Below are positions 41,811-58,880 of a stretch of 64,000 nucleotides of DNA, in pieces. The DNA is from Candidatus Poribacteria bacterium (GTDB lineage Bacteria > Poribacteria > WGA-4E > WGA-3G). The notes under the pieces were generated by a model. That model did not search any database, was not told the DNA's origin, and worked only from the letters and a program-made list of their open reading frames with translations. Location of the stretch: NCBI GenBank assembly GCA_022827185.1, contig JAJDTM010000002.1, forward strand, positions 1,560-65,559. The letters run 5' to 3'. A program made the translations under genes and the position numbers. Every line of letters begins with the position of its first letter. The stretch's first letter is position 1.

Positions 41811-42590
41811 TTGACCTATGGGGTAAAAATTATGAGAACCTATTGTGCAAGCACCCTCCCCTTTTCCTCTTTTCCTTTGACGGAGTTTGTTGGCGAGTTA
41901 TCTGAAGGTGGTGTGTCTGCTATTGAACTTGCCCAACCCCATTTTTCAGATGTGGCAGCCGAAACTATCGCCGAACTTCGAGAAGAGACAGGGGCCCGTT
42001 TCAAATCTCTGCTAAGCACGGTGCGAGTTGACGCACCAGACGGGATTGAAGCACTCATCTCGATTCTTGACACTGCCGAAAGACTTTCCATTCCAATCGT
42101 CAGCATCGCGAGTGGTGGCAATGAAACCGCCACGGCTCGTGAGATTGAAACGATTATTGAGCATCTCAAAACGGTCACCGAGGAAGCGGCGGCTCGCAAT
42201 CTGACCCTCGTCCTCTATGCGCACGAAGGGAGTCTCGCCTACAACCTTGAACGCACACAGCAGATCCTCAACGCGATCCCTTCCGAAAACTTTGGCTTTT
42301 ACTACAGCCCCTATCATTTCCATCGCGCTGGAGATGATCCCGTTGTTGCCTTGCAAACGTTGTCAGAACGGCTGGTGAGCGTCTATTTCAACTGCGGTGT
42401 CGATTCGCAAACAGGTAGCGAACCGTTCTGGGCACCGGAAATGGATTTCCCTGCTATCTGTCAGGAGATAGACCGCGTCGGTTACACCGAAGAAATCATG
42501 CTGATCTATTTAGGATTGAACGCGGAAACCCCACAACCGATTGTTGATGGGGTCTTAAACGCGCGTGCGAAGTTAGAAACCTACTTTTAA
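41811..42590 (+). CDS. Xylose-isomerase-like TIM-barrel protein
   Basis: 259 aa. GVSAIELAQP and YAHEGSLAYNLE resemble sugar-phosphate isomerase/epimerase family members. Confidence 0.45.
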   Translation: MTYGVKIMRTYCASTLPFSSFPLTEFVGELSEGGVSAIELAQPHFSDVAAETIAELREETGARFKSLLSTVRVDAPDGIEALISILDTAERLSIPIVSIASGGNETATAREIETIIEHLKTVTEEAAARNLTLVLYAHEGSLAYNLERTQQILNAIPSENFGFYYSPYHFHRAGDDPVVALQTLSERLVSVYFNCGVDSQTGSEPFWAPEMDFPAICQEIDRVGYTEEIMLIYLGLNAETPQPIVDGVLNARAKLETYF

Positions 42591-43064
42591 TTGCAGGTAC
42601 TTTATTGTCCCATTCCACACGTTACACGAAAACGACAGATAAAAACGGGCAAAATGTTGGGAACTTTGCTTCTCACGTTGTGCATCATGTATGATCATAC
42701 TTGTGGTTTCTCAAAACCCAATGCCAACGTGCTGTTTGTTTTCTCCAAATTTCTTTAGTATATTCCTATAATTACTCCCGTCTCTCAAAAAAATCCTTTC
42801 AAAAGTGTCCAAACGTCTTTCAGGGACATCCATTGTGTGTTTCCCTCCGTAATCGGGGTTTATCCTGCGTTCAGAACCCGATACTCGCAGAACAACTTCT
42901 AAAAATCCTGATTTTTTTGTTATTTTTTTCAAATGATGTGAGTTTTCCGTCCAAAACTTCGTCTTTAATAATAGAAGGTATGAACCGTATCGCCCTACGT
43001 AGTTTTACAAGACCCGGCATCTGATTAAGCCTTTCGGCGGATACGGACACGCCCCAACTGTTTA

Positions 43065-45602
43065 TTGGAAGGACACCTCGTGGAAAAAGAAAATGATGTT
43101 CAACTGATTCAAAGAATATTATCAGGCGATGAAGCAGCGTTTGATGTCTTGGTCCAAAGGCACCAGAAGAGTGTGCACGCCTTGGCGTGGCGGAAGATCG
43201 GCGATTTCCATGATGCTGAGGAGATTACACAGGACACATTCTTTCAGGTATACAAAAAACTCCCGACACTCACGGACCCTTATAAATTCGCTGGATGGCT
43301 GTATGTCATCACAAATCGGCTTTGTATTGATCGGATGCGGCAGAAAAATCTTACGATACAATCGTTGGAGGACACACCTGTGGAAGAAGTTGAAAAATCT
43401 TCTTATACCCATCACGTATCGGAACAACGGCATACAGAAATCACCGAGCGTCGCCGTGCTATCGTCAAAAAACTTCTTGAAAAACTCCCAGAGAGTGAAC
43501 GGACAGTTATGATCCTCCATTATCTCGGCGAAATGACGGTGAAAGAGATTAGCAAGTTCCTGGGTGTCTCTGCAAACGCAATTCATAACCGGTTGTATCG
43601 GGCACGAAAGCGGTTACAAGAGGAAGAAGCATTCCTTATTCAAGAAGTTCTCAGCAGCGTGCAAATACCAACGAGTGTAGGTCAAAACATTATGCAGCGG
43701 GTCGCTGACATAAAACTCACGCCGCAAACAACGCCAAAACCCGTTATTCCGTGGATCGCTTTCGGTACCGCTTTCCTTCTGCTCGCCTTACTCTTTGGCA
43801 CGAGCAATCAATACCTCACCCGTTTTCAGAGACCCTATAGTTTCGAGGCGGCATCTGAACCGACCATTGCTATCATTGACGCACCCGTCGTTCTTGAGAC
43901 AGACGCGAAACCCGCACTGCGAAGTCAAGTTGGACAGGATACCGCCTTAAATCAAAGAACTGGTGCAGGCTTACATGGATCTGAAACTGTCTCAACAACC
44001 GAGTTACCGATGCAGTCAGAAAATATTGAGGCATGGATGCCAGATGAAAATCTACGTCGGGCTATCAAATCTGAACTCAAACTTGGCGATATTCCGCTCG
44101 AGATAGCACATCTCCAGCAGCTCGAACGGTTACTCAGTATTGATGGCGGCATAGAAAGTATTGTGGGTTTAGAACACGCTGTTAATCTTAAATTTCTACA
44201 TCTTGCGCCCAACAAAATCTCGGATCTCACACCACTCGCAAACCTACACAACCTTCGGACACTGAAACTCTATCTCAACAGACTCGTAGACGTTTCACCC
44301 CTTGCGGGATTAGTAGGTTTAGAGACTTTGCATCTACAAAATAACAGGATCGTTGACATCTCACCCCTTGCCGGACTCGTCAACCTAAGGGATTTACAAC
44401 TCAATGGCAATCACATCGAATATTTTTCACCGCTCGCCGGATTAACAAAACTTCAGGTACTTAGGATTAACGACAACAGAGGCATCGATATTTCATCTGT
44501 CCCGACATCCAGTCTGACGGAATTTCTGTATGATCCGACCTTTAATATCCCAGAGATTCCGAACCGTGACCGGATCATGGCTCGCCAGTATCCATCCGTT
44601 TTCGCAGCTTGGCATAACATCATCAATCTACCGACGCTCTCATGGGACGAAAGATTAGTCTATCACGACTTGTGTTTCTCTAATCCTATGTTCGGGCTTC
44701 ATTGGCGGTGGACTCCTACAAGCATGAAAATCTCTGGGAATTTTCGGACAGCAAAGCAACAGCGAGATACGATGCTCAAAGAGAATCCAAATATGATTTT
44801 TCTCGTCGGGATTTATCACTATGGTACACAAGATACATTCGTTCAGCAGGCTGTTGAAGTTGCCAAATGTGGCATCTATGATGGTATCTTTTTAAATTGG
44901 TGGCAAGGCGATAGAGTTGATGCGAAAGTTGCTATACTGCAGAAAATTCGTGAAGTGGTTAGAGATGATTTTCTCATTATCGTCAACGGACTTCGCTCTA
45001 AAACTCCACACTTAGCTCCGTATGTCAACGGCATATTCATGAAAACGAGACGGTACCATCCACAGGGTTACATCCATACCGAACTTCAAGAGATTGAAAG
45101 TGCTTTGCTATGGTCAGAGAAGAATCTTCGATCTCCACAGATTAATTCCTTAGAGGGTTGGGGGCTCGCTGAAGAACCTCTGGATGCCCCACTTAACCAG
45201 CAATGGATGCGGGTCTTTACAACCTTGAGTTTAACGCATTCTGACGGCTATGTTTCGTATGTAACGGGGATTTCATCGTTAACCCACACACATCATTATC
45301 CCATTTGGGAAGGACATTCCGACGAACACGCACAAGGAAAACTACACGATCATACGCATCAGCACTACTGGTATGATTTCTGGGACGCCGATCTCGGTGA
45401 GCCAGTAGGTGGAAAAGGACAGTTCTACCGCGGTTGCGCTGGATTATTCATCCGCGAGTTTACCAACGGATGGGTCGTCTATAACCGCAGTGGAGAAGCA
45501 CAGCAGATCCAGTTGCCGAGGCAAGCCACCAGTGTCGCGAGCGGTATCACCAGCACATCACACACTGTCCCTGATTTAGACGGTGAGATCTTTGTAAAAT
45601 AG
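43065..45602 (+). CDS. Single-chain fusion: ECF sigma factor, one TM helix, LRR region and a roughly 300-aa conserved extracytoplasmic domain (domain X)
   Basis: Sigma-70 region 2 (DAEEITQDTFFQVYKKL) and region 4 (ERTVMILHYLGEMTVKEISKFLGVSANAIHNRLYRARKRL). TM helix VIPWIAFGTAFLLLALLFGT. LRRs of the 22-aa LxxLxLxxNxIxDIxPLAGL type. The C-terminal domain is homologous to those in 46676..47878 and 48186..50744. Likely start is GTG 43080. Confidence 0.75.
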   Translation: MEGHLVEKENDVQLIQRILSGDEAAFDVLVQRHQKSVHALAWRKIGDFHDAEEITQDTFFQVYKKLPTLTDPYKFAGWLYVITNRLCIDRMRQKNLTIQSLEDTPVEEVEKSSYTHHVSEQRHTEITERRRAIVKKLLEKLPESERTVMILHYLGEMTVKEISKFLGVSANAIHNRLYRARKRLQEEEAFLIQEVLSSVQIPTSVGQNIMQRVADIKLTPQTTPKPVIPWIAFGTAFLLLALLFGTSNQYLTRFQRPYSFEAASEPTIAIIDAPVVLETDAKPALRSQVGQDTALNQRTGAGLHGSETVSTTELPMQSENIEAWMPDENLRRAIKSELKLGDIPLEIAHLQQLERLLSIDGGIESIVGLEHAVNLKFLHLAPNKISDLTPLANLHNLRTLKLYLNRLVDVSPLAGLVGLETLHLQNNRIVDISPLAGLVNLRDLQLNGNHIEYFSPLAGLTKLQVLRINDNRGIDISSVPTSSLTEFLYDPTFNIPEIPNRDRIMARQYPSVFAAWHNIINLPTLSWDERLVYHDLCFSNPMFGLHWRWTPTSMKISGNFRTAKQQRDTMLKENPNMIFLVGIYHYGTQDTFVQQAVEVAKCGIYDGIFLNWWQGDRVDAKVAILQKIREVVRDDFLIIVNGLRSKTPHLAPYVNGIFMKTRRYHPQGYIHTELQEIESALLWSEKNLRSPQINSLEGWGLAEEPLDAPLNQQWMRVFTTLSLTHSDGYVSYVTGISSLTHTHHYPIWEGHSDEHAQGKLHDHTHQHYWYDFWDADLGEPVGGKGQFYRGCAGLFIREFTNGWVVYNRSGEAQQIQLPRQATSVASGITSTSHTVPDLDGEIFVK

Positions 45603-45611
45603 GCACATCGC

Positions 45612-45665
45612 CTGCGGATGTCAACGGCGATGGTGTTGATCCGTGACCTCGTCGCCATCGAAAAT
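45612..45665 (+). pseudogene. Frame-shifted dockerin remnant just 3' of the ECF-fusion stop
   Basis: gatgtcaacggcgatggtgtt encodes DVNGDGV, then a frame break, then DLVAIENN. This resembles the [20 protein letters not shown] dockerin repeats of neighbouring genes. Confidence 0.5.
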
Positions 45666-45721
45666 AATTTGGCGGAGAGACAAGCCAATTCTTACTACTT
45701 ATATGGAGAAGAATATGCCTT

Positions 45722-46567
45722 ATGAAAATTAATGGATTCATATCTACAATTATATTGACCGCATTGCTACTGATTGCCACACTCGGAGGCATCACACACG
45801 CCCAAGACGAAGAAGACTGGCTGCCGGATCCGAACCTCCGGCAGGCTATCCGTGAAGCACTCGATATCCCTGATGAGATACCGATACATCCTGGAGACAT
45901 GGAAGGATTACATGGCCTTCGCTTAATAGAAATAGAACACGATATTAGGAGTTTAAGAGGACTTGAGTATGCCGTGAATCTTAAATTCTTGGTTATCGAC
46001 AGAAGTCAACTCTCAAATTTAACGCCACTGGCGGGGCTTAAGAACTTAGAATTTTTGGTTATTGTTAGAAGTGAAATCTCAGATTTAACGCCCCTTACGG
46101 GACTCAAGAATTTACGGGACTTAAAGTTGCGTGAGAATCGCATCACGGATATTACACCCCTTGCAGGATTGGTAAACTTAGAGTTGCTGGTATTGACCCG
46201 GAATCAAATTGTGGATATAACACCGCTCGCAGGATTGATAAACCTACGACGCTTACAATTGAATCATAACCAGGTAGAAGATATTTCACCACTTCGTAGG
46301 TTGGTGAACCTACAACACTTGCAATTGCAACATAACCAGATCGTAGACATTTCACCGCTTCGCGGGTTGTTATCCCTCAAAGTGTTGAACCTCGGAGACA
46401 ATCCTATTACAGACCTTACACCCATTTACGGACTTGTCGGGATAGAAGCATTAGAGATCCAAGAGATACCTATTGACTTTGAAGAACTTCAGATACTGAA
46501 TCCAGTAGACCGTGTTGTTTGCAATATAGAAAGATCCCCCATACTGCCTCGGATTGAAAACATTTAG
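45722..46567 (+). CDS. Secreted LRR protein, the N-terminal part of a gene interrupted by an in-frame TAG
   Basis: Signal peptide. LRRs homologous to the LRR block of the 43065 fusion. The ORF ends at TAG 46565-46567, and the same frame continues into the next ORF. Confidence 0.6.
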   Translation: MKINGFISTIILTALLLIATLGGITHAQDEEDWLPDPNLRQAIREALDIPDEIPIHPGDMEGLHGLRLIEIEHDIRSLRGLEYAVNLKFLVIDRSQLSNLTPLAGLKNLEFLVIVRSEISDLTPLTGLKNLRDLKLRENRITDITPLAGLVNLELLVLTRNQIVDITPLAGLINLRRLQLNHNQVEDISPLRRLVNLQHLQLQHNQIVDISPLRGLLSLKVLNLGDNPITDLTPIYGLVGIEALEIQEIPIDFEELQILNPVDRVVCNIERSPILPRIENI

Positions 46568-46675
46568 TATCCGTCTATTTTTCAAGCGTGTGGGCTTATT
46601 GTCAACCGTCCGGAACTCTCGTGGGTAGAGCAATTAGCATCCCACGATCTGTTTTTCTGCCGTGGGGAGTTCGGA

Positions 46676-47878
46676 GTGGATTGGATTCAAGCACCAGATC
46701 GCCTGGTTCTCACACTCAGTGAGGCCAAAGTGCGCGCAAAAGAAGGACGCGATCGGAATCCAAATATACTTCTCCTTGCCAGCATAGAATTTTATGGGGC
46801 ATCCCCAGAATCGCCTTATGCACTCAGAGATGAATCGGGAAATGTAATAATAGATCACAAATGGGATGGTGCTTTCGCGGACTTCAGGCATCCTGATATT
46901 CAAAAGAGGTTTATAGAGAAGGCACACGCGATTGCGCGATGCGGGCTTTTTGATGGAATCGCCATAGATCATTGGGGGAAACCTGGACTTGGAGATATGA
47001 CCTTAGAAGAAACTGTTGCCGCAAAAGATCGCATGATACAGGCCATTCGTGATGGTGTCGATGATGATTTCTTGATACTGGTAACGACGACGAACGAGAT
47101 TATTCCGACACAGCATCATGCGGAATATATCAATGGCTTTTTCATGGAAACTATTGAAGGTTATGAGGGCGGTTATACCTACGCAGGACTCGCTCACATC
47201 GAAAACACGCTGCTGTGGGCAGAAAAAAACCTCCGAGAGCCTCAAATAAACTGTTTGGCAGGTAGGGGCGTTAGGAGCGAACTGCTGGATAGTCCGAGAA
47301 ATCTACAATGGATGCGTCTATGGACGACAATGAGTCTGACACATTCTGATGGCTATGTCATGTTTACCATGGGTGGCAACCTTGACCATCCCGCCCACCC
47401 TTTTGAATTTTTGCCAGGTCATGCGGATTGGCATGCACAAGGCAAGCGTCACACTCACCAAAACAGCCACTACTGGTATGATTTCTGGGATGCTCCGCTG
47501 GGTCGTCCGATCGGTGGTGATGAAACCAAAGCACAGTTTTATGAGGATCGCGAGGGGTTGTTTATCCGAGAATTTACTAACGGCTGGGCGGTGTATAATC
47601 GCTCCGGCTCCGAACAACAGATTGAGTTTTCGGAAGAAGTCTCCGGCTGGGACAGTGGGGTGGCGCATCAACGCCAGCATACGTTGGCGGATTTGGATGG
47701 CGAGATTTATTTGAAAGCGGAAACCCCTCCCATTGCGGATGTCAATGGTGACGGGACGGTGAATGTCTTGGATCTGGTTATCGTCGCGAATGCGTTTGGG
47801 GAAGCAGCACCGGATTTGAATGGTGACGGGACGGTGAATGTGTTAGACCTTGTGCTGGTGGCGAATGCGTTTGAGTAG
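46676..47878 (+). CDS. Domain X plus a double-repeat type I dockerin (3' part of the split gene)
   Basis: Homologous to the C-terminal domain of the 43065 and 48186 proteins. Ends [46 protein letters not shown]. Confidence 0.6.
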
Positions 47879-48185
47879 GAAACACGCCAAGTTTTTCGCA
47901 GAAATGACCGATTTTCACTGAAAAATGGTGTTCGTGCGTCTAAAATCACATAGGTAGCAAGTTAGGTTATTCTAAAATGTCGAAACACTTGACGAAACTC
48001 AAGAGACTTGAAAAATATCAGCATTAGAATATTCCTTAAATGCTTCTGCTTAACGATTGCAGAAACCTCGCCCTTTAGGGCGGGGTCTATCACGACTTCA
48101 TTATACCAAAAGGGTTCTGTTTATACAAAAAGTTACGCGATTATTTATCAGAGTCACGTTATACAAACGAATGAGGTAAATCCCT

Positions 48186-50744
48186 ATGAAAATCAAGCCC
48201 TCTTTTTACTACAGTTTCCACCTTCTTTTTCTGATTCTCTATCTCAGTCTTACCCCTGTGCACGCCCAAGACTGGCTCCCTGACCCGGTGTTACGGAAAA
48301 CGATTCGGGAATCTCTGGGTCTATCGGCAAACACACCGCTCACAAAAGACTATATGCAACAACTGATACGTCTTGATGGAAATAACAAAGGCATCACGGA
48401 TCTCAGGGGTTTAGAGTTTGCGACGAACCTAAGAATCCTGCACTTGGGAGGTAATGAAAATAATATCACAGATATCAGTCCGCTTGCCAACTTAACAAAT
48501 CTTGTAGGGCTTCATATCTGGCGTGTTCGGCGTCACGACACGCATCGGGCACCCCTCGACATCCGTCCGCTCGCCAACCTCGTTAACTTAGAGGTGCTCT
48601 CTCTGGAGCGACAGGGACTTTCGGATATAAGCGTGCTTGCGAACCTGACAAAGCTTCATAAGTTAGCACTGACGCACAACAACATCTTGGACTTTAGCCC
48701 GTTAGCAGGATTGACGCATCTGCGGATATTGTGGATAAAAAACAACTGGGGGACGGATTTGAGTCCGCTCAAAGGGTTGAATATTACAGATTTTCGCTAT
48801 GACGAAGTGTGTGATTTCACATCACAAGGGGAGTCCGTCACTGCGCGTGTTGAGAACAGGACGTTTCCGTCGATAGTCGGGCTATTCCCGAAAGGGTCAA
48901 TAGAGGAGATGACCCGGTATGATTTCCATTATGGCACCCATTTCGGATTGTGGTGGAAGCGAACGGAAACCGAGCCGACACACGGCTTAGCGATTCGACG
49001 TTCAGGGGATATGGCGCAGGCGAGAGCGTACCGCCAACAGATGCTCCAACAGAATCCAAACATGTTGTTTTTTGTGGGGGTACCTTTGCTTAATTACAAA
49101 CCTTCCAATGCGGCAACGGCTTTTCCCGCAGATTCTGATTTTTGGCTGCGAGATCGCCAAGGGAATATCATCCAAAATGAGAATGATGCGTGGCTGCTGA
49201 ACATTTTGAACCCAGCGTTACAGGATGTTCAGATTGAAAGAATTGTAGGTTTTGCAAAGTGTGGGATTTTCGATGGTGCGCTGTTAGAAGGATTTACAAA
49301 TCATGGAATTGGTGCTGTGGGCAGCCAGTTTTACCCAGTCGTAACAGATGTGCCGTTAACGGAGGAAGCGATTATTGAGGCGTATCTCCGAATTCTAAGC
49401 GAGGTCCGCGCCCGCGTTCCTGAGGACTTTTTGATCGTCGTCAATGCTACGAGAACCAGACCGACCCGTTATGCGGCATACATCAATGGTAATGTGATGG
49501 AACCGGGTTGGGATTATTCCTACAAAGGACTTGCCGAGATTGAAAGCACTTTACTTTGGTCTGAGGAACATTTCCGGGAACCGCAACTGAATTGGGCACA
49601 AGGGTTTCTTATCACCTCGGAGCCCCCGGAGAGTCCTGGGAACCGTCAACGAATGCGTCTCTTTACAACGATGGGACTCACGCACTCTGATGGCTACATA
49701 AACGTCCATTATCATTCAGCGAAGTGGCAGCGATGGGGAGACATCGCTGAAAATTACTGGTATGACTTCTATGATGCCGACCTCGGCAAGCCGATTGGCA
49801 AAACAGCGCAACGCTGCGACGACTGCGACGGGCTCTTCGTGCGTGAGTTCACCAACGGTTGGGCGGTCTACAACCGGAGCGGCAAAGCACAGACGATCCA
49901 CTTACCCGTCAAAGCCACGGGTGTCGCAAGTGGTATCACAAACACCGAACACATCGTTCCAGATTTAGATGGCGAGATGTATCTGAAACAGGCACCGAGT
50001 GTGAATAGCATCGGCATTGTCACTGTGGTTGAGGTTGCGACCGGTGCGCCAGAGGAACCGGAATCCGAATGGATGCCGGATGCCGCCTTACGCGCAGTAG
50101 TTCGGAAGGAAATGGGACTCCCAACACATATCGCTTTGGAAAAATCCCGCATGCCACAGCTGATACATGTTGATGGAAATAACAAAGGCATCACAGACCT
50201 GACGGGTTTGGAGTTTGCGACGAACCTAAGAATCCTGCACGTCGGGGGGAATAAGAATCAGATAACCGACCTTCGCCCGCTTGCGAACTTGACGATCCTT
50301 GAGCATCTCTATATCTGGCGCACACCTCCAAAAGACCCCGCTTCGGTGAGAGTTCTTGACATCCGTCCGCTCGCCAAGCTCACCAACTTACATGCACTCT
50401 CACTGGCGGGAAACGGGATTACCGATATAGCCCTACTGGCGGGCATGAAGAAGCTCGTCAAACTCATCCTTACAGATAATCGGATTGAAGACTTTAGTCC
50501 GCTGGCTGGGCTGATGAGTTTACGAACGTTGAGGATTCGGAACAACCCCGCCACAGATTTCAGCCCACTTGCCGCTTTACCCCTTATTGAATTTCAACTT
50601 GATGCCGATGTCAACGCCGATGGCTTTGTGAATGTGCTTGACCTCGTTACCGTCGCGAATGCGTTTGGGGAAGCGGCACCCGATCTCAACGGTGATGGCA
50701 TCGTCAATATTCAAGATTTAATTATTGTCGCGAATGCGTTTTGA
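48186..50744 (+). CDS. Secreted protein: LRR, domain X, LRR and a C-terminal dockerin
   Basis: Signal peptide LFLILYLSLTPVHAQD. Two LRR blocks. Domain X motifs ([47 protein letters not shown]). Dockerin [45 protein letters not shown]. Confidence 0.75.
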   Translation: MKIKPSFYYSFHLLFLILYLSLTPVHAQDWLPDPVLRKTIRESLGLSANTPLTKDYMQQLIRLDGNNKGITDLRGLEFATNLRILHLGGNENNITDISPLANLTNLVGLHIWRVRRHDTHRAPLDIRPLANLVNLEVLSLERQGLSDISVLANLTKLHKLALTHNNILDFSPLAGLTHLRILWIKNNWGTDLSPLKGLNITDFRYDEVCDFTSQGESVTARVENRTFPSIVGLFPKGSIEEMTRYDFHYGTHFGLWWKRTETEPTHGLAIRRSGDMAQARAYRQQMLQQNPNMLFFVGVPLLNYKPSNAATAFPADSDFWLRDRQGNIIQNENDAWLLNILNPALQDVQIERIVGFAKCGIFDGALLEGFTNHGIGAVGSQFYPVVTDVPLTEEAIIEAYLRILSEVRARVPEDFLIVVNATRTRPTRYAAYINGNVMEPGWDYSYKGLAEIESTLLWSEEHFREPQLNWAQGFLITSEPPESPGNRQRMRLFTTMGLTHSDGYINVHYHSAKWQRWGDIAENYWYDFYDADLGKPIGKTAQRCDDCDGLFVREFTNGWAVYNRSGKAQTIHLPVKATGVASGITNTEHIVPDLDGEMYLKQAPSVNSIGIVTVVEVATGAPEEPESEWMPDAALRAVVRKEMGLPTHIALEKSRMPQLIHVDGNNKGITDLTGLEFATNLRILHVGGNKNQITDLRPLANLTILEHLYIWRTPPKDPASVRVLDIRPLAKLTNLHALSLAGNGITDIALLAGMKKLVKLILTDNRIEDFSPLAGLMSLRTLRIRNNPATDFSPLAALPLIEFQLDADVNADGFVNVLDLVTVANAFGEAAPDLNGDGIVNIQDLIIVANAF

Positions 50745-50965
50745 AATGGAGATTATATCTTATACTATGACAATCAAAGAAATATATCGTAAATCATTGT
50801 GGTTTCAGTTGCTCCTCGCGTCGGTTGTGGGCATGCTTGTCTATAATGCGTTTACCTATAACTTGAGAATTAAGAATTTACACGACTGCTGCCAAAATGC
50901 CAGCGTGGTTGCAAACCATCTCCTTTGTGAATGGCAGACCAGCAGTAGAAACGGAGATAAACTAA

Positions 50966-53080
50966 ATGCAACTAACTAAGAAACAAAACATTTTTATTTA
51001 CTTACTCATCTTTTGTGCGACACTATTCTTCGTATTTCCACTGATAACAAGTGCACAAACTGTTAACATTCCTGACGCGAATCTTCGCGAAGCAATCAAT
51101 GAGGCACTCGGTAAAGCATCAAATGCCCAGGTTACATTGAAGGAAATAGTGACGTTAACCCGCCTTACTGCGAATAACAGAGGTATCAGCGATTTAACAG
51201 GACTTGAAGTTGCGACAGGATTGGAGAGCGTAGAACTCCAGCATAATCAAATATCCGACTTATCCCCGCTCGCGGGGTTGATGAAACTGCGTGTTATACG
51301 GATGGGCAATAACCTTATATTTGATTTATCCCCGGTCGCAGGTTTAATCAACTTGGCAAGATTAGATATCTGGGAGAATTTGATTTCCGATTTGTCCCCG
51401 GTCGCAGGTTTAACCAACTTACTATCAATAAGTTTCGGGAGTAATTCGGTATTTGACTTATCACCCTTGGCGGGGTTAAGGAAGCTTGAGAGGATAAATA
51501 TGAGCCAAAACCCGCCAGCAGACCTCTCGCCCCTTTCAAAAATAATTGGTTTGACAGGTTTTCATTCTTGGGGCACCCCTATATTAGACCTCGCGCCTTT
51601 GGCGGAATTACCAAAACTCAGCGTCATAGATATCTGCGGGGGCGAGATATCGGACCTCTCCGCTTTAGCGAACGCGACAGGTTTGAAGGAACTGTATTTT
51701 GCTGGCAATCAGATCACGGACGTATCGCCGTTGGTGGGCTTAACAAATTTGACGAGACTGAATTTTGCAGAAAATGAAATATCGGACGTGTCACCACTTG
51801 CTGGATTAACCAACTTGACATGGATACGGATTAACCACAATCCAATATCCGATCTATCGCCTTTAGAAGGGTTAGGTATACCTATTGTTCACCATAATAC
51901 CCCGGCATTTCCACCGGGCGGTCCGAAAATCGAAGGACCATGGTTATGGGTACTTGTACCGGGGGAGCGTATTGGTGGTGGAGATTTGCTGGCAGAAGCG
52001 ACGGGTGGCACAGCGACAGAGGAGAAGGTTGCTACTGTTGGTGCTGCAGAGGGAAAGTCTGTTGGAGACAATGTTTGGGTAGCCGATAACATTACCGCGG
52101 TGGGACGCAATAACATCGGTGAAATGCTGAAACGCCAAGGCGTGGGAAACGACGGAGTCGTCTACGGTTCCACCACCTTGGAGTCACCACGAGAACAGGA
52201 AACAAAAATGTTCGTCGGCGCGCATGATGGTGTTGAAGTCTGGCTCAACGGGGCACTCATTCACCAGAAATCTGGTGGACATTGGGCGGAGGGTTACCAC
52301 ACCTTTTTTCCCGTTACGCTCAACGAAGGAACAAATGTGTTGTTAGTTGCTCTTGACAACCACCACGTTGATCAGTGGCGGGCATTTTTTGGATTTGACG
52401 TTGACACAGAATATACGGTAAATTCTCCGATTTCCCGAGCTCCATCTGAAATACCTGCTTATGATGTCAATGAGGATGGGCAAATCAGTATTCTGGATCT
52501 GATTCTGGTAGGTCAAGACTTGGGAAAAGCAAAGCCCACCAACGCGCGAACAGATGTGAATGGCGATGGAACTGTTAGTATCTCGGACCTCGTCCTTGTG
52601 GCACAACATCTCGGCGAAATAACAGGAATTCCTGCCTCGCCTTCCCCCTACACCTTACGCAGCATGGGGTTAGACGCGGCAACAGTCCACACGTGGATAG
52701 CACTTGCCGAGATAGAAAATGATGGCTCGCTCGTCTTCAAGCAAGCGATAGCGAATCTTCAACGGCTTTTAGCGTTGTTGATGCCCGAAAGGACAGCATT
52801 GCTTGTGAACTATCCGAATCCGTTTAACCCAGAGACATGGATACCCTACCAACTTGCTGAACCTGCCAAGGTCACTATACACATTTATGCGATGAGCGGT
52901 GCTTTGGTCCGGAAGTTAGATTTAGGACATCAGGCTGCTGGTATCTATAGTGAAAAGAACCGTGCAGCGTATTGGGATGGTCGCAACCAACTTGGAGAAC
53001 CTGTAGCGAGTGGTGTGTATTTCTACACGTTCACTACTGGCGACTTTACGGCGACGCGAAAAATGGTGATAAGGAAGTAG
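50966..53080 (+). CDS. Secreted protein: LRR, a roughly 180-aa unknown domain (domain Y), a dockerin and a T9SS-type C-terminal sorting domain
   Basis: Signal peptide. About 12 LRRs. Domain Y (GPWLWVLVPG...KSVGDNVW...SPREQETKMF). Dockerin DVNEDGQISILDL...[41 protein letters not shown]...VYFYTFTTGDFTATRKMVIRK. Confidence 0.75.
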   Translation: MQLTKKQNIFIYLLIFCATLFFVFPLITSAQTVNIPDANLREAINEALGKASNAQVTLKEIVTLTRLTANNRGISDLTGLEVATGLESVELQHNQISDLSPLAGLMKLRVIRMGNNLIFDLSPVAGLINLARLDIWENLISDLSPVAGLTNLLSISFGSNSVFDLSPLAGLRKLERINMSQNPPADLSPLSKIIGLTGFHSWGTPILDLAPLAELPKLSVIDICGGEISDLSALANATGLKELYFAGNQITDVSPLVGLTNLTRLNFAENEISDVSPLAGLTNLTWIRINHNPISDLSPLEGLGIPIVHHNTPAFPPGGPKIEGPWLWVLVPGERIGGGDLLAEATGGTATEEKVATVGAAEGKSVGDNVWVADNITAVGRNNIGEMLKRQGVGNDGVVYGSTTLESPREQETKMFVGAHDGVEVWLNGALIHQKSGGHWAEGYHTFFPVTLNEGTNVLLVALDNHHVDQWRAFFGFDVDTEYTVNSPISRAPSEIPAYDVNEDGQISILDLILVGQDLGKAKPTNARTDVNGDGTVSISDLVLVAQHLGEITGIPASPSPYTLRSMGLDAATVHTWIALAEIENDGSLVFKQAIANLQRLLALLMPERTALLVNYPNPFNPETWIPYQLAEPAKVTIHIYAMSGALVRKLDLGHQAAGIYSEKNRAAYWDGRNQLGEPVASGVYFYTFTTGDFTATRKMVIRK

Positions 53081-53117
53081 GTTGTCGCACTTTCAACCGA
53101 TAGTTAGGAGATTAACC

Positions 53118-56100
53118 ATGAGAATTAGTAAATACCTTTATCTGACAGTATTAATATTTATCGTATTAGGATTTGGAACCGCATCTGCGCAGCAGGATCT
53201 CGCGCAAGAGGCATACACTATCCTTCAAAAGAATTGTTCGCTATGTCATGGAGAACACGGCTCCTTTACCGAGGATTTGGTGCTTGAATACACATCACTC
53301 ATCGGGAATGGGGTTATTGTCCCTGGAAATCCTAATGCTTCGGAGTTCTATAAACGATTAATTGAGAATACACCCGAAAAACCGCGAATGCCGTGGGGAC
53401 AGCCTGCGTTGTCAGCGGATGCGCTTGAGACGATTCGTCAGTGGATTGCAGCGGGTGCACCGAATTGGGAGGTGCAATATGATGTCAACTTCATTACGAT
53501 GGATGCGATGCTTTCGGTGATTGAAGATCACGTCGCGTCGCTTTCGGCATTTGATCGTCCGTCCGCTCGCTACTTCACGCTGACGCATCTCTATAACGCT
53601 GGTGGAAGTCCTGAGGCACTTGATGCCTATCGGCGTGCACTCTCGAAGTTGGTGAATAGTCTCTCCTGGGGGTTTGAAGTGATCAAGCCAGAACCGATTG
53701 ACGAACAAGAGATGATCTTTTATATTGATTTGCGCCACTATGAGTGGGATAGAAACGAAGCGTGGACGCAGATTGAACGGGAATATCCCTACAGCATTGA
53801 ATTTGATTCGGAGACACAAGCGGGTCTGCACGAAAAACTGACGAATTTACGTACAGAAATGGACTGCGAAGTGCCGTTTGTCTATGTGGATTGGTTCCTT
53901 GCTAATGCGTCGTTACCACCGCTGTACCACGATATTCTGGACCTGCCAGAAACGGATCAGGAATTAGAGGAGCAACTGGGAGTCAATGTGACGCGAAATA
54001 TCAACAATGCTCCCGGGGTTCACGTCTGGCGTGCGGGTTTCCTCAAGTCGGGTGTGTCAGGGTACAACCGTGTTGTGGAACGGCACACCTCCGACTATGG
54101 TGCGTATTGGAAAAGCTACGACTTTGCGGGGGATTCGGACGTTCAGAATATTTTTATACATCCGCTGACTTTTAGACACGACGGTGGGGAGGTCGTGTTC
54201 CATCTGCCGAACGGTTTGCAAGGGTATTATATCTCTGATGCGTCTGGGAATCGGATAAATGAGGCACCAACGACGATCGTATCCAACCCAGCGGCAAGCA
54301 ATCCTGCCGTGCGCAATGGTCTCTCTTGTATCGGTTGCCACACAGAAGGCATGAAAACGTTTGAAGATGAGGTGCGTGCGGAGATTATGCTGCGGTTCCC
54401 TGAGGGACCGGTGAAGGATCAGGGATTGCGTCTGTATGTGGAACAATCAAAGATGGATGCGCTTGTGGCGAGGGACACAGCTCGTTACAGGGGAGCACTT
54501 GAAAAGACGGGTGGTGTGTTTGGTGGTACGGTTGAACCGGTACATCGGTTCTATGAGGAGTTTCAACGTCCTGTTGAGGCTGCACACGCTGCGGCTGCTG
54601 TCGGTTTAGAGACAGAGATGTTCCGTCAAGAGATTCGAGATAAACAGCGTTTACGGGACTTAGGTTTGGCGGGGCTATTGGAGGATAGGGGTGTGAGTCG
54701 GGATACATGGACCTCCAACTTTCCCGAAGTGATTTCGGCGCTGCATTCTCCCGACGATACAACAACACAGCCGGTCGATCCAGAAACTGACCTACGTCCT
54801 GGTGATTTAGTCTCTATTCCTGATCCGAACCTTCGTGCTGTGATAGAAAGGTTGCTCGACAAAGCCCCAGGTGCTTTGATTACGGCGGCGGATATGGCAA
54901 GGTTGACGCGGATTGTTGCCGATGATGCTGGGATTAGTAATTTGACGGGACTTGAGGCGGCAACGCAGTTGGAACGCATAGAATTTCGTCGGAATTCGAT
55001 ATCCGATTTATCTCCACTGAGAGGCTTAATCCGACTCAATAACATCAAGCTCCGGGGGAATCGGATAACCGATGTATCACCGCTTGCTGACTTAGTTCGT
55101 GTGGATTGGTTAGGACTTGAGGATAACGAGATAACAGATTTATCTCCGCTGAAGGGATTAACCAGATTAAACGGGATAGGGATTTCAGGCAACCCAATAT
55201 CCGATGTATCACCGCTTGCAAACTTGACCAGTTTAGAAGGCATCAACGCTTGGCGCACACCTATCTCGGATTTCTCATCCTTGGCAAAATTAACGAGATT
55301 CAGGTGGATAGGATTTGGTGATGATAAGTCGATATCAGCACTTCCATCACTGAAGGGATTGAAAAGTTTGAGACGGTTGGAAATTAACAACTGTAGCATC
55401 TCGGATCTCTCCGGATTGGCGGAATTGACACAGTTGGAATGGTTAGGATTGAATAATAACCAGATATCGGATATATCTCCATTGCGAAATTTAAGGGGTT
55501 TAGAACATCTGAATCTTAATGCTAACATTATCGAAGATGTATCGCCGCTTGCGAAGTTAACAAAGTTAAAACTTCTACATCTTGTGAACAACATTATCTC
55601 GGATGTATCGCCGCTTGCAGGATTAACTAACTTGGAACGGTTAGACCTCCGCAACAATGCGATATCTGACTTTTCACCTTTGGAAGGATTATTGGAGGAG
55701 ACATTTGTCAGAATAGAAGGTAACACGGGTGTTCTCCGGCGAGGAGCTCCAAAGATACAAGGGCCATGGTTGTGGGTGCTCGTGCCTGTGCCCGGGTCTG
55801 ATGCCTTCCGTAACATAGATTTGCTTGCACGAGCAAGTAATGGAGATATAACCGAGCGGGAGATCGCTACAAACGGTGCGACAGAAGGGAAGTCTGTCGG
55901 TGATAACGTCTGGTTTTCCGAGAAAATATCTACGGATAGGAACAACATCAGAACCATGCTGGGTGCCCTCGGTATGTTAGAAGAGGGCAGTCGCTCGAAT
56001 CTCGTCTACGGTTCGCTCACCCTTGATTCACCACGAGAACAACAGACAAAGATGTTTGCTGGGAGCGATGATCTGCATAAAGTCTGGTTCAATGGACAGT

Positions 56101-57755
56101 TGGTTAGCGAAGCTGTCCACGGAGGGACAAGTGGTGATTACCAGGAATCTTTCCGTGTTACGTTGAAGCAAGGAAAAAATGTGTTATTAGTTGCAATATA
56201 TGATTATGGGGGTGGATGGGGAGGACATTTTGGGTTTGCGCCTGATGCTGAATATACGGTCTTATCCCCTGACACCAGATTCTCCTTTTCCACAGCGGCG
56301 ACGCGAATTAAAGTTGGCGATAGGTTCACTGTTCAGTTCAAAACAAAAAACATTTCCGACTTAGCGGGATGGCGATCTGATATTACATTTGATCCCGCAG
56401 TGCTAAAAGTCAATAACGTCCGCGAGGGTAGTTTCCTGAAACAAGGTGGTGGACGCACCCACTTCTTGAAAGGCACGATTGATAATACGATGGGTAGAAT
56501 CGCCGATGTCGGTTCTGCACGGATCTCTGAAGGTGGAGTTAGCGGTGAAGGTGCCCTGTTGTCAATTACATTCACGGCAAAGGTGAATGGTGAGAGCCGA
56601 TTGTCACTACGAAAATTTCAAGCTGGTTCCAGTACGGGTGATGCAATTTCTGATCGACCCCCTGATATGATTATTACTGTCGAGGATCCGTCGTCCTTAG
56701 ATGTAAGTGATGGCCCATTTTCCCTTTCTACGGATGTAACACCTGTTCGCCTTGGTAATACCTTTAACCTTCTTCTCAAAGCGGAAGATGTTACGGATTT
56801 AGCGGGATGGCAGACTGATATTGCGTTTGACCCCGATGTGCTTGAAACCGTTGAGGTGAACGAAGGCGATTTTCTGAAGGCGGAAGGCGGGGATACCTTC
56901 TTTTTTCAAGGCGCGATTGATAACACGGCAGGTAAAATTACAGGTCTCAGCGCAGCGAAGTTGAAGGGCGGTGGTAACGGCGCAGGTATGCTACTATTGG
57001 TTACATTCAAGGCGAAGGCTGTCGGGGAAACACGGGTGACACTTAGCAATTTCTTTGCTGGCTCCAGCAGCGGCGAAACTATCTCTTCAGAAGTTCCCGA
57101 AATTAGGATCACTATTGAGGATCGCGCGTTTTCTGCTTCGGATGTCAATCAGGACGGTCGAGTGAACGTTCAGGATCTAATCGTGGTTGCACAACATTTA
57201 GGTGCTGATGCGTCTGTCAACCGCCGAGCGGATGTCAATGGCGATGGAACTATTAACGTTTTGGACATCATCGTTATCGCACAAAATTTAGGTGAATCAA
57301 CAGCGGCTGCGCCTTCCAATGTTGCTGCTATAGACAGTTTAGAATTATATCCAGCAATGGTTCAGGCATGGATAGCGGAGGCAGAGGCTAAGAATGACGA
57401 TTCGATTGCCTTCCGACAGGGTATCGAAAACCTTCAACGACTTTTAGCGTCGCTGCTTCCTGAAAAGACAGTGTTGCTGCCGAACTATCCGAACCCGTTC
57501 AATCCCGAAACATGGATACCCTATCATCTTGCTGAAGCTGCGGATGTGACAGTGCATATCTATGCTACCGATGGGGTCTCGGTTCGGACGTTGGCGTTAG
57601 GGCATCAGGCTGCTGGCACCTATGAGCGTCGTAGCCGTGCGGTGTATTGGGACGGCAAAAACGAGGTCGGTGAGCCTGTCGCGAGTGGTGTCTATTTTTA
57701 TACCCTAACGGCAGGTGATTTCACTGCTACGCGGAAACTGTTGATACGGAAATAG
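53118..57755 (+). CDS. Giant secreted scaffold-like protein: PSCyt1-like CxxCH domain, a second CxxCH, LRR, domain Y, two cohesin-like modules, a dockerin and a T9SS-type CTD
   Basis: ATG 53118 with aggag RBS and signal peptide. CSLCH at about 53235 followed by ...PRMPWGQPALSADALETIRQWIAAGAP, the PSCyt1 pattern. CIGCH at about 54325. LRRs 54820-55700. Domain Y 55740-56280. Cohesin-like beta-sandwich modules at about 56290-56690 and 56700-57120 (DLAGW..DI.FDP.VL). Dockerin at 57130-57300. CTD at 57480-57755. The track ORF starts at TTG 53082, one base after the previous stop. Confidence 0.75.
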   Translation: MRISKYLYLTVLIFIVLGFGTASAQQDLAQEAYTILQKNCSLCHGEHGSFTEDLVLEYTSLIGNGVIVPGNPNASEFYKRLIENTPEKPRMPWGQPALSADALETIRQWIAAGAPNWEVQYDVNFITMDAMLSVIEDHVASLSAFDRPSARYFTLTHLYNAGGSPEALDAYRRALSKLVNSLSWGFEVIKPEPIDEQEMIFYIDLRHYEWDRNEAWTQIEREYPYSIEFDSETQAGLHEKLTNLRTEMDCEVPFVYVDWFLANASLPPLYHDILDLPETDQELEEQLGVNVTRNINNAPGVHVWRAGFLKSGVSGYNRVVERHTSDYGAYWKSYDFAGDSDVQNIFIHPLTFRHDGGEVVFHLPNGLQGYYISDASGNRINEAPTTIVSNPAASNPAVRNGLSCIGCHTEGMKTFEDEVRAEIMLRFPEGPVKDQGLRLYVEQSKMDALVARDTARYRGALEKTGGVFGGTVEPVHRFYEEFQRPVEAAHAAAAVGLETEMFRQEIRDKQRLRDLGLAGLLEDRGVSRDTWTSNFPEVISALHSPDDTTTQPVDPETDLRPGDLVSIPDPNLRAVIERLLDKAPGALITAADMARLTRIVADDAGISNLTGLEAATQLERIEFRRNSISDLSPLRGLIRLNNIKLRGNRITDVSPLADLVRVDWLGLEDNEITDLSPLKGLTRLNGIGISGNPISDVSPLANLTSLEGINAWRTPISDFSSLAKLTRFRWIGFGDDKSISALPSLKGLKSLRRLEINNCSISDLSGLAELTQLEWLGLNNNQISDISPLRNLRGLEHLNLNANIIEDVSPLAKLTKLKLLHLVNNIISDVSPLAGLTNLERLDLRNNAISDFSPLEGLLEETFVRIEGNTGVLRRGAPKIQGPWLWVLVPVPGSDAFRNIDLLARASNGDITEREIATNGATEGKSVGDNVWFSEKISTDRNNIRTMLGALGMLEEGSRSNLVYGSLTLDSPREQQTKMFAGSDDLHKVWFNGQLVSEAVHGGTSGDYQESFRVTLKQGKNVLLVAIYDYGGGWGGHFGFAPDAEYTVLSPDTRFSFSTAATRIKVGDRFTVQFKTKNISDLAGWRSDITFDPAVLKVNNVREGSFLKQGGGRTHFLKGTIDNTMGRIADVGSARISEGGVSGEGALLSITFTAKVNGESRLSLRKFQAGSSTGDAISDRPPDMIITVEDPSSLDVSDGPFSLSTDVTPVRLGNTFNLLLKAEDVTDLAGWQTDIAFDPDVLETVEVNEGDFLKAEGGDTFFFQGAIDNTAGKITGLSAAKLKGGGNGAGMLLLVTFKAKAVGETRVTLSNFFAGSSSGETISSEVPEIRITIEDRAFSASDVNQDGRVNVQDLIVVAQHLGADASVNRRADVNGDGTINVLDIIVIAQNLGESTAAAPSNVAAIDSLELYPAMVQAWIAEAEAKNDDSIAFRQGIENLQRLLASLLPEKTVLLPNYPNPFNPETWIPYHLAEAADVTVHIYATDGVSVRTLALGHQAAGTYERRSRAVYWDGKNEVGEPVASGVYFYTLTAGDFTATRKLLIRK

Positions 57756-57826
57756 GCGTTTGATGAACGGTAGTCGGGATTCGGGAATAGGTGCCTACCA
57801 GTTCATATTCTCCTTGTTAGGGCTTT

Positions 57827-57871
57827 TATGAAACACCCTCATTTAATTGAGGGTGTTTCATTATTCGCGGA
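57827..57871 (+). terminator. Strong hairpin terminator after the scaffold gene
   Basis: atgaaacaccctca-tttaat-tgagggtgtttcat, a perfect 14-bp stem, followed by tattcg. Confidence 0.5.
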
Positions 57872-57894
57872 GGCTTCGTACCGCAAAGACCACA

Positions 57895-57960
57895 ATGACC
57901 TCGTCGCCGTCGCAAACGCCTTCGGCAAGGATACTCTCGGTATCAACGGTGTCTGAAACC
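57895..57960 (+). pseudogene. Orphan dockerin-coding remnant in intergenic DNA
   Basis: Encodes NDLVAVANAFGKDTLGINGV*, which resembles the [15 protein letters not shown] dockerin segment. There is no upstream ORF. Confidence 0.45.
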
Positions 57961-58316
57961 CTTCATTATATACAAATTTCATCTCCGATCTTTCCCGTCG
58001 TCAATATTTTGGATCTTATCCTCATTTCATCTTTACCTCGTCCTCATCTCATTCTCATTACTCAACATTTAAGCGGATAAAAATAAAAACGTCTGTAGCG
58101 TTGTGTGCTAACACTTCCAGACTTTATATAATCTGCGGTTTATCAGGTCCCTGAAACCCGACCTGCCTTCGGGATAACTGTTAAAAAAATAGAAATTTTC
58201 ATTTTTTTTCAGATTATGCACGTTTTCCGTTCCCAAATTACGTCTTTAGAAATCAAGCGGTAAAAAAATCATTTTGTTTAACAATTTTCGTTTAATATCT
58301 GAAGGGAGAAAAAAAG

Positions 58317-58880
58317 ATGTCAAAAACTTTTAGTTCGGAAACTTTCAAAAAAACATTCGATGCCTATATCCTAAGGTGGCATATATCGGAAGCCGTCTTA
58401 TTGATTTTGGCTTTCTTACCTTTCTTGGCGTACGGCATAGCGTACTATTTGGATCTTTCATGGATACCTATCTTGGGTGACATAACTTTTGGGGCAATTT
58501 CATCTGGTATTGTTTCTTTTGGAGCCATCTCTTTTGGATTTGTTTCGATTGGGGCCATATCTTTCGGTGTCATAGCTATTGGCAGTTCGTCTTGCGGGAT
58601 CATAGCAATCGGCGCAATATCCGCGGGGGTTTTTGCTTTTGGAAATGCCTCCGCTGTTGGACTTATCGCTATTTCTACAGGTTCAACTGGGATAACTCCC
58701 CGGGTCGGTGGCACTGCTGTTGGCGTTATAGCGATCGGTCAGCATGCAAGCGGCGTATACGCGCTCTCCTATGAAAGAAAAGACAATAGCGTTTATCAGT
58801 TTTCACCGGAACGCCAAGATATAGAGGCTGTCACACTCTTTACCCGCTGTCTCCGAAAGTTTAAGAAAGCGTATGCATAA
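58317..58880 (+). CDS. Small membrane protein with tandem glycine-zipper repeats (GAISxG x about 10)
   Basis: GAISSGIVSFGAISFGFVSIGAISFGVIAIGSSSCGIIAIGAISAGVFAFG. The DNA is periodic over 58490-58650. Confidence 0.5.
   Translation: MSKTFSSETFKKTFDAYILRWHISEAVLLILAFLPFLAYGIAYYLDLSWIPILGDITFGAISSGIVSFGAISFGFVSIGAISFGVIAIGSSSCGIIAIGAISAGVFAFGNASAVGLIAISTGSTGITPRVGGTAVGVIAIGQHASGVYALSYERKDNSVYQFSPERQDIEAVTLFTRCLRKFKKAYA

Follow-up and report, generated by a model that had tools for sequence, protein, structure and literature searches.

A dockerin relic behind the stop codon of an ECF sensor gene

The stretch of DNA analyzed here (the window) comprises 64,000 nucleotides (nt) from Candidatus Poribacteria bacterium (assembly GCA_022827185.1, contig JAJDTM010000002.1, positions 1,560 to 65,559 of the forward strand). 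It contains a gene predicted to encode an extracytoplasmic function (ECF) sigma factor fused to a transmembrane helix, a leucine-rich repeat (LRR) region, and a GHL15-like domain, here called domain X. The DNA directly behind the TAG stop codon of this gene retains remains of a dockerin, a module carried by the paralogous secreted proteins encoded downstream. We conclude, with a probability of about 0.85, that 45603-45673 is a non-functional fossil of a type-I-like dockerin that was once translated as the C-terminus of the membrane-anchored sensor. The initial annotation, made from the letters alone, had noticed the peptides DVNGDGV and DLVAIENN, separated by a frame break, after the stop at 45602 and had taken them for dockerin leftovers. 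A three-frame reading finds both peptides exactly there, and their origin is upheld by a nucleotide-profile match, a shuffle test, and collinearity with the junction of domain X, linker, and dockerin in the secreted paralogues.

Behind the TAG, the −1 frame reads I-G-T-S-P-A-D-V-N-G-D-G-V-D-P-stop (15 codons), while the gene’s own frame reads D-L-V-A-I-E-N-N at 45645-45668 and continues with L-A-E. The segment divides as follows:

45603-45616, plus strand: relic of the linker between domain X and dockerin, GTSPA in the −1 frame (from the multi-locus alignment described below)
45617-45637, plus strand: relic of the Ca-binding loop, DVNGDGV in the −1 frame (from reading frames and alignments)
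45645-45673, plus strand: relic of the dockerin helix, DLVAIENN(LA) in the gene’s frame (DLVAIANAF in intact genes)
45674-45721, plus strand: old 3′ flank or spacer up to the next gene (an alignment-dependent reading)

The linker relic is 1 nt shorter than the intact KVSSPT-type linker, and behind the Ca-loop relic come a 5-nt deletion peculiar to the window and a TGA (45644-45646). The second dockerin repeat is absent, and the old stop codon, which follows ANSF in relatives, is gone from the spacer according to the alignment. A GGAG at 45705-45708 lies 13 nt before the ATG of the next gene at 45722. The relic thus runs to about 45673, slightly past the end that the initial annotation had given it.

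Smith-Waterman alignment of the whole spacer (45603-45721, 119 nt) with the first dockerin repeat of the 48186 gene gave a score of 26 (z = 11.7), against 8.8 ± 1.5 for 1000 dinucleotide-preserving shuffles, none of which reached 26. The other three dockerins of the window gave z values of 4.7-9.3, so that the similarity to intact dockerin-coding segments, which the initial annotation had staked its case on, exceeds that of shuffled sequence (z 4.7-11.7). We also built an nhmmer nucleotide profile from 85 intact repeats in long open reading frames (ORFs) of the window and related loci, and a second from 77 repeats with the window’s own excluded. Both match 45612-45673 at 31.6-31.7 bits (E = 5e-9, both strands of the 64-kb window), where the relic ranks ninth, right behind the eight intact repeats of four window genes (starting at 47738, 47813, 50607, 50682, 52463, 52553, 57141, and 57231). 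In a three-way MAFFT alignment, relic and intact genes match collinearly all the way from where domain X ends (DLDGEI..K), across the linker and into repeat 1; a single 5-nt gap explains the frame break. The segment 45612-45673 is therefore homologous to dockerin-repeat DNA, and chance is excluded.

The relic derives from the 22-residue repeat of Ca loop and helix that characterizes type I dockerins (PF00404), and its intact paralogues score as Dockerin_1. By nucleotide profile and shuffle test it belongs with this family. Unlike a functional type I dockerin, with its two translated repeats of about 22 residues, it is untranslated, lies behind a stop, consists of one repeat broken over two frames, and reads ENNL in place of the core ANAF; its translation, repaired by hand, scores 15.8 bits against PF00404, below the 22.9-bit cut-off.

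The fusion gene and its predicted product

The gene that precedes the relic has the following parts:

43080-45602, plus strand: ECF sigma/transmembrane/LRR/GHL15-like (domain X) fusion gene, 840 residues (ORF list, Pfam, and homologues)
43149-43622, plus strand: cytoplasmic sigma-2 (43149-43349) and sigma-4 (43461-43622) regions (Pfam coordinates converted to nt)
43743-43799, plus strand: single transmembrane helix IPWIAFGTAFLLLALLFGT, residues 222-240
44037-44480, plus strand: extracytoplasmic LRR region (Pfam LRR_4/LRR_8), with 47% identity to the LRR of the 45722 product
44577-45599, plus strand: extracytoplasmic GHL15-like domain X (BLASTP), with the C-terminal end ...VPDLDGEIFVK
45600-45602, plus strand: TAG stop, the first linker codon after domain X (gene end AAA TAG at 45597-45602)

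The mechanical ORF begins at TTG 43065, which the initial annotation had adopted as the gene start. Its stop stands, and the true start is probably GTG 43080, as judged from homologues: the closest of these, P0001 and P0002 (92% identity, 840 residues), begin with MEKENDVQ, the fusion gene read from this GTG begins with VEKENDVQ, and a GGAGG lies 7 nt 5′ of it. An exact-protein look-up with the TTG-start ORF found no match, as would be expected if translation begins at GTG 43080.

Pfam matches to Sigma70_r2 (6e-15), Sigma70_r4_2 (3e-16), and Sigma70_ECF (1e-6), with none to sigma region 3 or region 1 at E ≤ 0.01, fit the ECF (group 4) class of sigma-70 factors, which have sigma-2 and sigma-4 only and lack sigma-3 and sigma-1.1. 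The transmembrane helix is the sole 19-residue stretch with a Kyte-Doolittle mean above 1.6 (peak 2.2) and begins only about 35 residues after sigma-4; no anti-sigma domain (zf-HC2, FecR, or RskA) was matched by Pfam at E ≤ 0.01. The LRR region matches LRR_4 at 5e-24. Domain X shares 44% identity with the 46676 product and 37% with the 48186 product (BLASTP). These two score 26.7 and 52 bits, respectively, against GHL15 (PF14885, cut-off 27 bits), the fusion has no GHL15 match at E ≤ 0.01, and many of its homologues carry a precomputed PF14885 match; a PDB sequence search with domain X found nothing significant.

Two segments are missing from domain X of the fusion: one of some 40 residues (PYPDDWEYWLRDESGNRI...IDYTLPG in relatives), whose place would be between ...GIYHY and GTQDTF, and one of about 11 residues after NWWQ. 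Both segments occur in the close fusion relative P0009 and in the secreted paralogues, and the shortening is common to the relatives of 838-840 residues, such as P0001, P0002, and P0011. The sensor’s copy of domain X may be a non-catalytic binding module.

The gene ends in GAG ATC TTT GTA AAA TAG. Intact dockerin-bearing genes have AAG, GCG, TCG, or CAG at the position of the TAG.

A conserved element of about 100-140 nt lies 5′ of the sensor gene (42913-43053), with the core TTCGTCTTTAATAATAGA at 42958-42975, 122 nt before GTG 43080. It is almost invariant across fusion subfamilies, whose proteins diverge far more, and overlaps a probably spurious ORF (42701-43024). In most relatives it contains GCGAAT-N16-CGTC, which we take to resemble ECF-type −35/−10 motifs; the window has GTGAGT. 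The element may be an autoregulated promoter or operator. Its predicted RNA fold is weak (−10 kcal/mol) and lacks covariation support.

Dockerin loss is widespread among relatives of the sensor

The fusion family is very large, with many thousands of proteins matching at E ≤ 1e-10. The best 120 clusters listed all score above about 895 bits, nearly all are full-length ECF/transmembrane/LRR/X fusions, and the few that are named by source belong to Candidatus Poribacteria. Their C-terminus falls exactly at the K of DLDGEI..K in 96 cases; 18 clusters carry an extension of 1-15 residues, some of which still read, for example, QVSSPTDANGDAVGK, and 4 end in some otherwise atypical way. An intact two-repeat dockerin is present in two (P0006 and P0029), and 114 of the best 120 have lost it. 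Among 30 truncated fusions, 22 stop at the first linker codon (K+1).

Scanning a single genome for each species yielded 61 loci, of which 60 are in metagenome-assembled genomes of Poribacteria. ORF tracing in these, together with three loci fetched earlier, distinguished 29 LRR-X fusions from 31 other loci, the latter mainly a second ECF-fusion family with a Sortilin/BNR-type ectodomain. That second family (L033-L063; for example L047, 10001-12958) has proteins of about 960-1000 residues, several copies per genome, and an ectodomain that matches Sortilin-Vps10, BNR, and the YCF48-like beta-propeller. A literature search for Poribacteria together with dockerin or cohesin, or with LRR or sigma factor, found nothing relevant in the library searched, and the ECF/LRR/GHL15 sensors, as delineated by homology, appear to be an undescribed family of more than 100 protein clusters, encoded beside cohesin and dockerin genes in sponge symbionts.

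Of the 29 other LRR-X fusion loci, 18 gave an nhmmer relic match 3′ of the stop (E 5e-17 to 5e-5); the 31 remaining, mainly Sortilin/BNR-type, loci gave none. Three-frame reading finds dockerin leftovers after the stop in most LRR-X fusions: a dockerin-like peptide in L009, DVNSDESVNIFDRVAIANRF followed by a stop in L010, TSPTDADSDGT and, in another piece, VNIFNPVAIENSF with a stop in L003, K-stop-ETGSSMDINGDGAVNILDL closed by two stops in L020, and K-stop-VSSPTDVNGDGVGNKV in L023.

We aligned the window with ten other loci (L003, L008-L011, L013, L029, L002, L015, and L016), the intact gene of L001, and the intact 46676 gene. Compared with the intact KVSSPT-type linker, the same nucleotide is missing from the window and from all ten other loci. 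The first linker codon is TAG or TAA in the window and seven of the ten; in L002, L015, and L016 it is CAA, one step from TAA. Beyond these shared lesions lie private ones: the 5-nt deletion inside the repeat in the window, a 1-nt deletion in L003 and L008, a 13-nt deletion that takes out the Ca loop in L002, L015, and L016, and a 1-nt insertion in L029. Key residues are also lost in the relics of relatives, as in DVHSGG or the change of DLV to DRV. No stop interrupts the −1 frame across a full repeat in L009, L010, and L013. Each aligned relic has a single repeat left, which runs to the apparent original stop (ANSF-stop, or ANAFE-stop in L029); former intergenic DNA, with the ribosome-binding site of the following gene, comes after it. 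In the window, as far as the alignment can be trusted, that stop has disappeared. Two relic repeats are still visible in L004 and L006, so that the collapse to one repeat postdates silencing. The shared lesions indicate that silencing itself predates the split of many genomes.

Recurrent loss and recombination with secreted paralogues

The linkers that follow the final K of domain X in intact secreted paralogues fall into distinct types: K-KVSSPT (AAG), K-AETPPIA (GCG), K-SESGLETPPT (TCG), and K-QETGTS (CAG or CAA). Relics of at least three linker classes stand behind the stops of truncated fusions. The KVSSPT class is represented by stop-VSSPT and by the frame-shifted GTSPA of the window, the Q/ETGSS class by stop-ETGSSM (L020 and L017), and the SESGL/SVSSPT class by SESGLKTPPTAAVNGDGVDK and SVSSPTDVNGNGVGNKL, each ending in a stop (L025 and L024). 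Because AAG, CAG, and TCG are each one step from TAG, several independent losses are the simplest reading. Comparison across loci thus indicates that loss of the dockerin is old and recurrent, neither local nor recent.

An identity profile of the window’s fusion against the syntenic P0021, P0023, and P0030 in 40-residue bins is strongly uneven. The first 280 residues (sigma, transmembrane helix, and stalk) are about 75-95% identical (ECF plus transmembrane helix about 90%), the LRR and domain X 25-80% (mostly 30-60%), and the last 80 residues 70-88%; P0020 shows the opposite pattern against the window. This profile points to a fusion family that is a recombination mosaic, in which ectodomains and 3′ ends have been swapped with secreted paralogues. 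Recent conversion of the sensor ectodomain from the adjacent paralogue was considered and rejected, since the two are only 33-61% identical in six loci checked and 37-47% in the window.

One exchange is recorded in L001 (contig ERZ21862620:ctg185877l), which encodes P0006, the sole intact-dockerin fusion with its locus examined. The gene follows other fusion genes to about 8363, its chimeric stretch spans 8363-8718, and its 8401-8700 portion matches 10311-10610 of L002, where the secreted paralogue has its 3′ end. The DNA 3′ of the L001 fusion is what follows the L002 paralogue, then a cohesin gene, and the secreted paralogue itself is absent from L001. P0006 is thus a secondary deletion chimera formed by unequal crossing-over in a conserved block, not as a surviving ancestor: the deletion removed the sensor tail, the relic, and most of the secreted paralogue, leaving a tethered sigma sensor with a two-repeat dockerin. 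A tethered sensor can therefore regain a dockerin and then lose it again. P0029 (950 residues) may be a second chimera.

These comparisons bear on how the dockerin came to the sensor. The relic proves that an in-frame dockerin once stood on the fusion gene; it does not prove that this dockerin dates from the birth of the sensor. Since 3′ ends are exchanged, the relic may date from a later exchange instead. The stricter version, in which the relic is the original 3′ end of a duplicated LRR-X-dockerin gene, lost once in ancient times without later exchange, appears unlikely to us. It would account for the collinearity of the relic with the paralogue architecture, for dockerin relics in several fusion subfamilies, and for the stop at the same codon in most members. 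Yet the relics have kept too much of their sequence for a family this deep, as ectodomains have diverged down to 40-50% amino acid identity and relic divergence is about that of third positions in the gene tail; subfamilies carry differing linker types behind the stop, each like those of secreted paralogues; the identity profile is mosaic; and an exchange that brings in a fresh dockerin is directly observed in L001.

The initial annotation had proposed that the sensor arose by duplication of a dockerin-bearing gene for LRR and domain X, which then lost its dockerin once tethered to the membrane. Paralogy of the LRR and domain X with those of the secreted proteins agrees with this origin; the local secreted genes are not the parents, because they share only the 37-47% identity given above with the sensor ectodomain. 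Loss is the rule among the best 120 clusters, as the proposal implied, but it is old and recurrent, and the dockerin can be supplied anew.

The relic evolves without coding constraint

Pairwise comparison of eight loci of the aligned group gives a mean divergence of 0.29 for the relic, against 0.35 at third positions and 0.13 at first and second positions of the gene’s final 60 codons. The minimum numbers of substitutions at positions 1, 2, and 3 of dockerin-frame codons in the relic are 14, 14, and 15. These values indicate that the relic is free of protein-coding constraint and that the gene before it is constrained.

A role as a regulatory spacer (promoter, terminator, or leader) of the downstream secreted gene is improbable. 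The relic does lie within the 119-nt spacer before ATG 45722, and a segment behind it (about 45676-45700) looks better conserved among relatives. Against this, promoter- and terminator-like sites in 42500-48300 are no more frequent than in shuffled sequence, the only one that touches the spacer is a minus-strand promoter-like match (45624-45596), an Rfam scan of 42000-59000 gave no match, and the relic changes at the neutral rate with different indels in each lineage.

Recoding, in which a −1 slip at A_AAA_TAG or readthrough of the TAG yields a minor isoform with a dockerin-like tail, has very little in its favor. Such an isoform would contain the junction ...FVK-IGTSPADVNGDG and peptides such as FVKIGTSPADVNGDG. 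The Ca-loop relic does stand in the −1 frame, a lysine tRNA could re-pair on GT[A AAA] TAG, the −1 frame spans a full repeat in L009, L010, and L013, and another in-frame TAG splits the next gene. In the window, however, the −1 frame closes after its 15 codons (DVNGDGVDP-stop), the zero frame yields junk (AHRLRMSTAMV...), a single repeat is left, and relatives have lost key residues. Lack of coding constraint in the relic, whose substitutions accumulate at the neutral rate without codon periodicity, argues against an isoform made by either route. Readthrough was rejected because TAG is an ordinary stop, ending 16 of 39 genes of this genome, and the frames behind it are broken; −1 frameshifting was rejected on the broken frames, the neutral divergence, and the even 14/14/15 spread.

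That sequencing or assembly indels conceal an intact dockerin, a case the initial annotation had named as fatal to its view and for which the frame breaks themselves are the only argument, has a negligible chance, as the window is identical to an ENA scaffold (ERZ23491282, 262 kb; 0 mismatches over 12.8 kb) and to a separately assembled Logan contig of run SRR16351679 (0 mismatches over 4.3 kb, TAG and indels included), the TAG and the 1-nt deletion are common to independent genomes, and to arrive at an intact dockerin one would have to remove the stop, mend two indels, undo several core substitutions (ANAF to ENNL), and supply an entire second repeat. Identical assemblies, homologous relics in other loci, and neutral evolution together exclude sequencing error and chance.

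Genomic neighborhood of the sensor gene

Downstream of the relic lies a cluster of dockerin and cohesin genes:

45722-47878, plus strand: secreted paralogue with signal peptide, LRR, GHL15-like domain, and two-repeat dockerin (47738-47875), split by an in-frame TAG at 46565-46567
48186-50744, plus strand: secreted paralogue with LRR, GHL15, LRR, and dockerin; its repeat 1 (50607) matches the relic better, at nucleotide level, than any other in the window
50966-53080: LRR/dockerin/FlgD_ig gene (Pfam)
53082-57755, plus strand: candidate scaffold of 1557 residues with a PSCyt1-like N-terminus, LRR, two cohesin stretches, dockerin, and FlgD_ig/T9SS-like C-terminus (Pfam)

The TAG at 46565-46567 is identical in two assemblies, and orthologues of the 45722-47878 gene in L002 and L003 are single, uninterrupted genes of 652-655 residues. 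The window copy is probably either a fresh pseudogene or split into a product with signal peptide and LRR and a GHL15-dockerin product without signal peptide. Within the 48186 gene, an in-frame linker at 49989-50030 (KQAPSVNSIGIVTVVEVA, after DLDGEMYLK), which joins domain X to the second LRR block, bears a faint likeness to a dockerin repeat in degenerate form; the nucleotide profile misses it, and the likeness may be due to chance.

Dockerin_1 is found in four genes of this cluster, among them the cohesin gene 53082-57755 (Cohesin, PF00963, 4e-19; Dockerin_1, 6e-9; FlgD_ig, 1e-8). The domain content of this gene makes its product a candidate surface scaffold, to which the dockerins probably bind. 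Cohesin genes are found in syntenic position in L001, L002, and further Poribacteria loci, and L001 and L002 share the same arrangement of cohesin and dockerin genes.

A second, orphan dockerin relic (57896-58024) lies in the 560-nt gap after the stop of the cohesin gene at 57755. It reads ...DLVAVANAFGKDTLGINGV and a stop in one frame and VVNILDLILISS in another (nhmmer E = 1e-4 and 0.01), which suggests a vanished dockerin gene and birth-and-death turnover in the cluster. Further along, an M16-like gene (59091-61160) and another ECF/transmembrane fusion (61227-63419) form a second sensor/effector pair. The ectodomain of that fusion (residues 311-727) is 72% identical to residues 22-436 of the upstream M16-like protein, which runs about 250 residues further; no relic of the missing M16-like part was found after the stop of the fusion.

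Discussion

Taken together, the lesions show a stepwise decay. In an ancestor common to the window and ten other loci, the dockerin was cut off by a stop at the first linker codon (now TAG or TAA, as a single-step mutation of a sense codon, for instance the intact gene’s AAG, could produce) and by a 1-nt linker deletion. One of the two repeats was then lost, the lineage of the window acquired the 5-nt deletion in the remaining repeat and, by the alignment, lost the old stop, and the relic has drifted at the neutral rate ever since. The gene itself would encode a working one-component sensor, with sigma-2 and sigma-4 in the cytoplasm, one transmembrane helix, and the LRR and GHL15-like domains outside, which probably detects the same class of ligand as the neighboring secreted LRR-GHL15-dockerin proteins; these in turn presumably dock onto the cohesin-bearing 53082-57755 product. 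A sensor in the inner membrane would have no use for a dockerin, so that disabling mutations would be tolerated and the ORF would shrink to the end of the constrained domain X. Loss could then work as a neutral ratchet: nonsense mutations anywhere in the tail would be tolerated, and the ORF would end at whichever of them lies furthest 5′, right where the constrained domain stops.

ECF sigma factors with a fused membrane-spanning extension include IutY of Pseudomonas putida (ECF243) and SCO4117 of Streptomyces coelicolor (ECF52) (PMC8999054). Regulated proteolysis has been shown for IutY, which is released by Prc and RseP, and is thought to act on SCO4117, which carries a carbohydrate-binding domain on the outside (PMC8999054). 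Like these proteins, the fusion joins sigma-2/sigma-4, a transmembrane segment, and an extracytoplasmic domain in one polypeptide. Unlike them, it has no detectable anti-sigma domain, with about 35 residues between sigma-4 and the membrane; it comes from the phylum Poribacteria and is known from sequence alone; and its ectodomain, LRR plus GHL15-like, is a paralogue of neighboring secreted proteins. As no anti-sigma domain is detectable, we do not claim membership in the IutY or SCO4117 groups.

A functional analogy, and no more than that, links the fusion to the SigI/RsgI biomass sensors of Clostridium thermocellum, whose outer modules are like those of cellulosomal enzymes and which control cohesin-dockerin components (PMC10328401, PMC4711584, PMC6852018). 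Both are sigma-linked membrane sensors whose outside module is of the type found on enzymes of a cohesin-dockerin system and which themselves lack a dockerin, and the clustering of dockerin and cohesin genes at the fusion locus is an analogous genomic setting. The sigma factor of the fusion, however, is of ECF type and shares one ORF with the sensor, whereas SigI and RsgI are separate proteins.

Several points weigh against our interpretation. The divergence comparisons rest on short segments (about 60-180 nt) of related sequences. The C-terminus of the product at K840 is a prediction from the gene. Selection for a clean cut, instead of a neutral ratchet, could likewise have put the stop at one and the same codon in three linker classes. 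The regulon link has been demonstrated for SigI/RsgI and would have to be assumed for the fusion: we sought a promoter motif common to the sensor gene and the secreted and cohesin genes, and the upstream element is single-copy in the window.

The relic itself is a new example of something well known, a decaying domain fragment after a premature stop with no present function. As in a partial pseudogene behind a functional gene, the stop sits at a domain boundary and is followed by frame-broken, neutrally evolving coding DNA. Unlike the usual partial pseudogene, this relic can be traced in 18 other loci with graded lesions, and the dockerin has been lost again in several subfamilies, fed by recombination with intact paralogues. 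More interesting is the surrounding family of one-component ECF sensors, with its effector-derived ectodomains, its recombination, and its repeated loss of dockerins.

A wider picture, which we regard as doubtful, is that Poribacteria have a cellulosome-like surface system in which LRR-GHL15 proteins dock on a cohesin scaffold under the control of ECF sensors whose ectodomains are copies of the effectors, kept matched by recurrent recombination, with the incoming dockerin discarded each time. If so, the relic would be the footprint of the latest recombination cycle, and an uncultured sponge symbiont would possess, in fused and ECF-based form, a counterpart of the SigI/RsgI logic of clostridia. 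As it stands, the relic is direct sequence evidence of a transmembrane sigma sensor built from, or re-fitted with, a secreted effector module, and it shows that an anchoring domain loses its use when the module becomes fixed to the membrane. With its graded lesions, natural chimera, and mosaic profile, this family clearly exemplifies how modular sensors evolve as tandem paralogues recombine.

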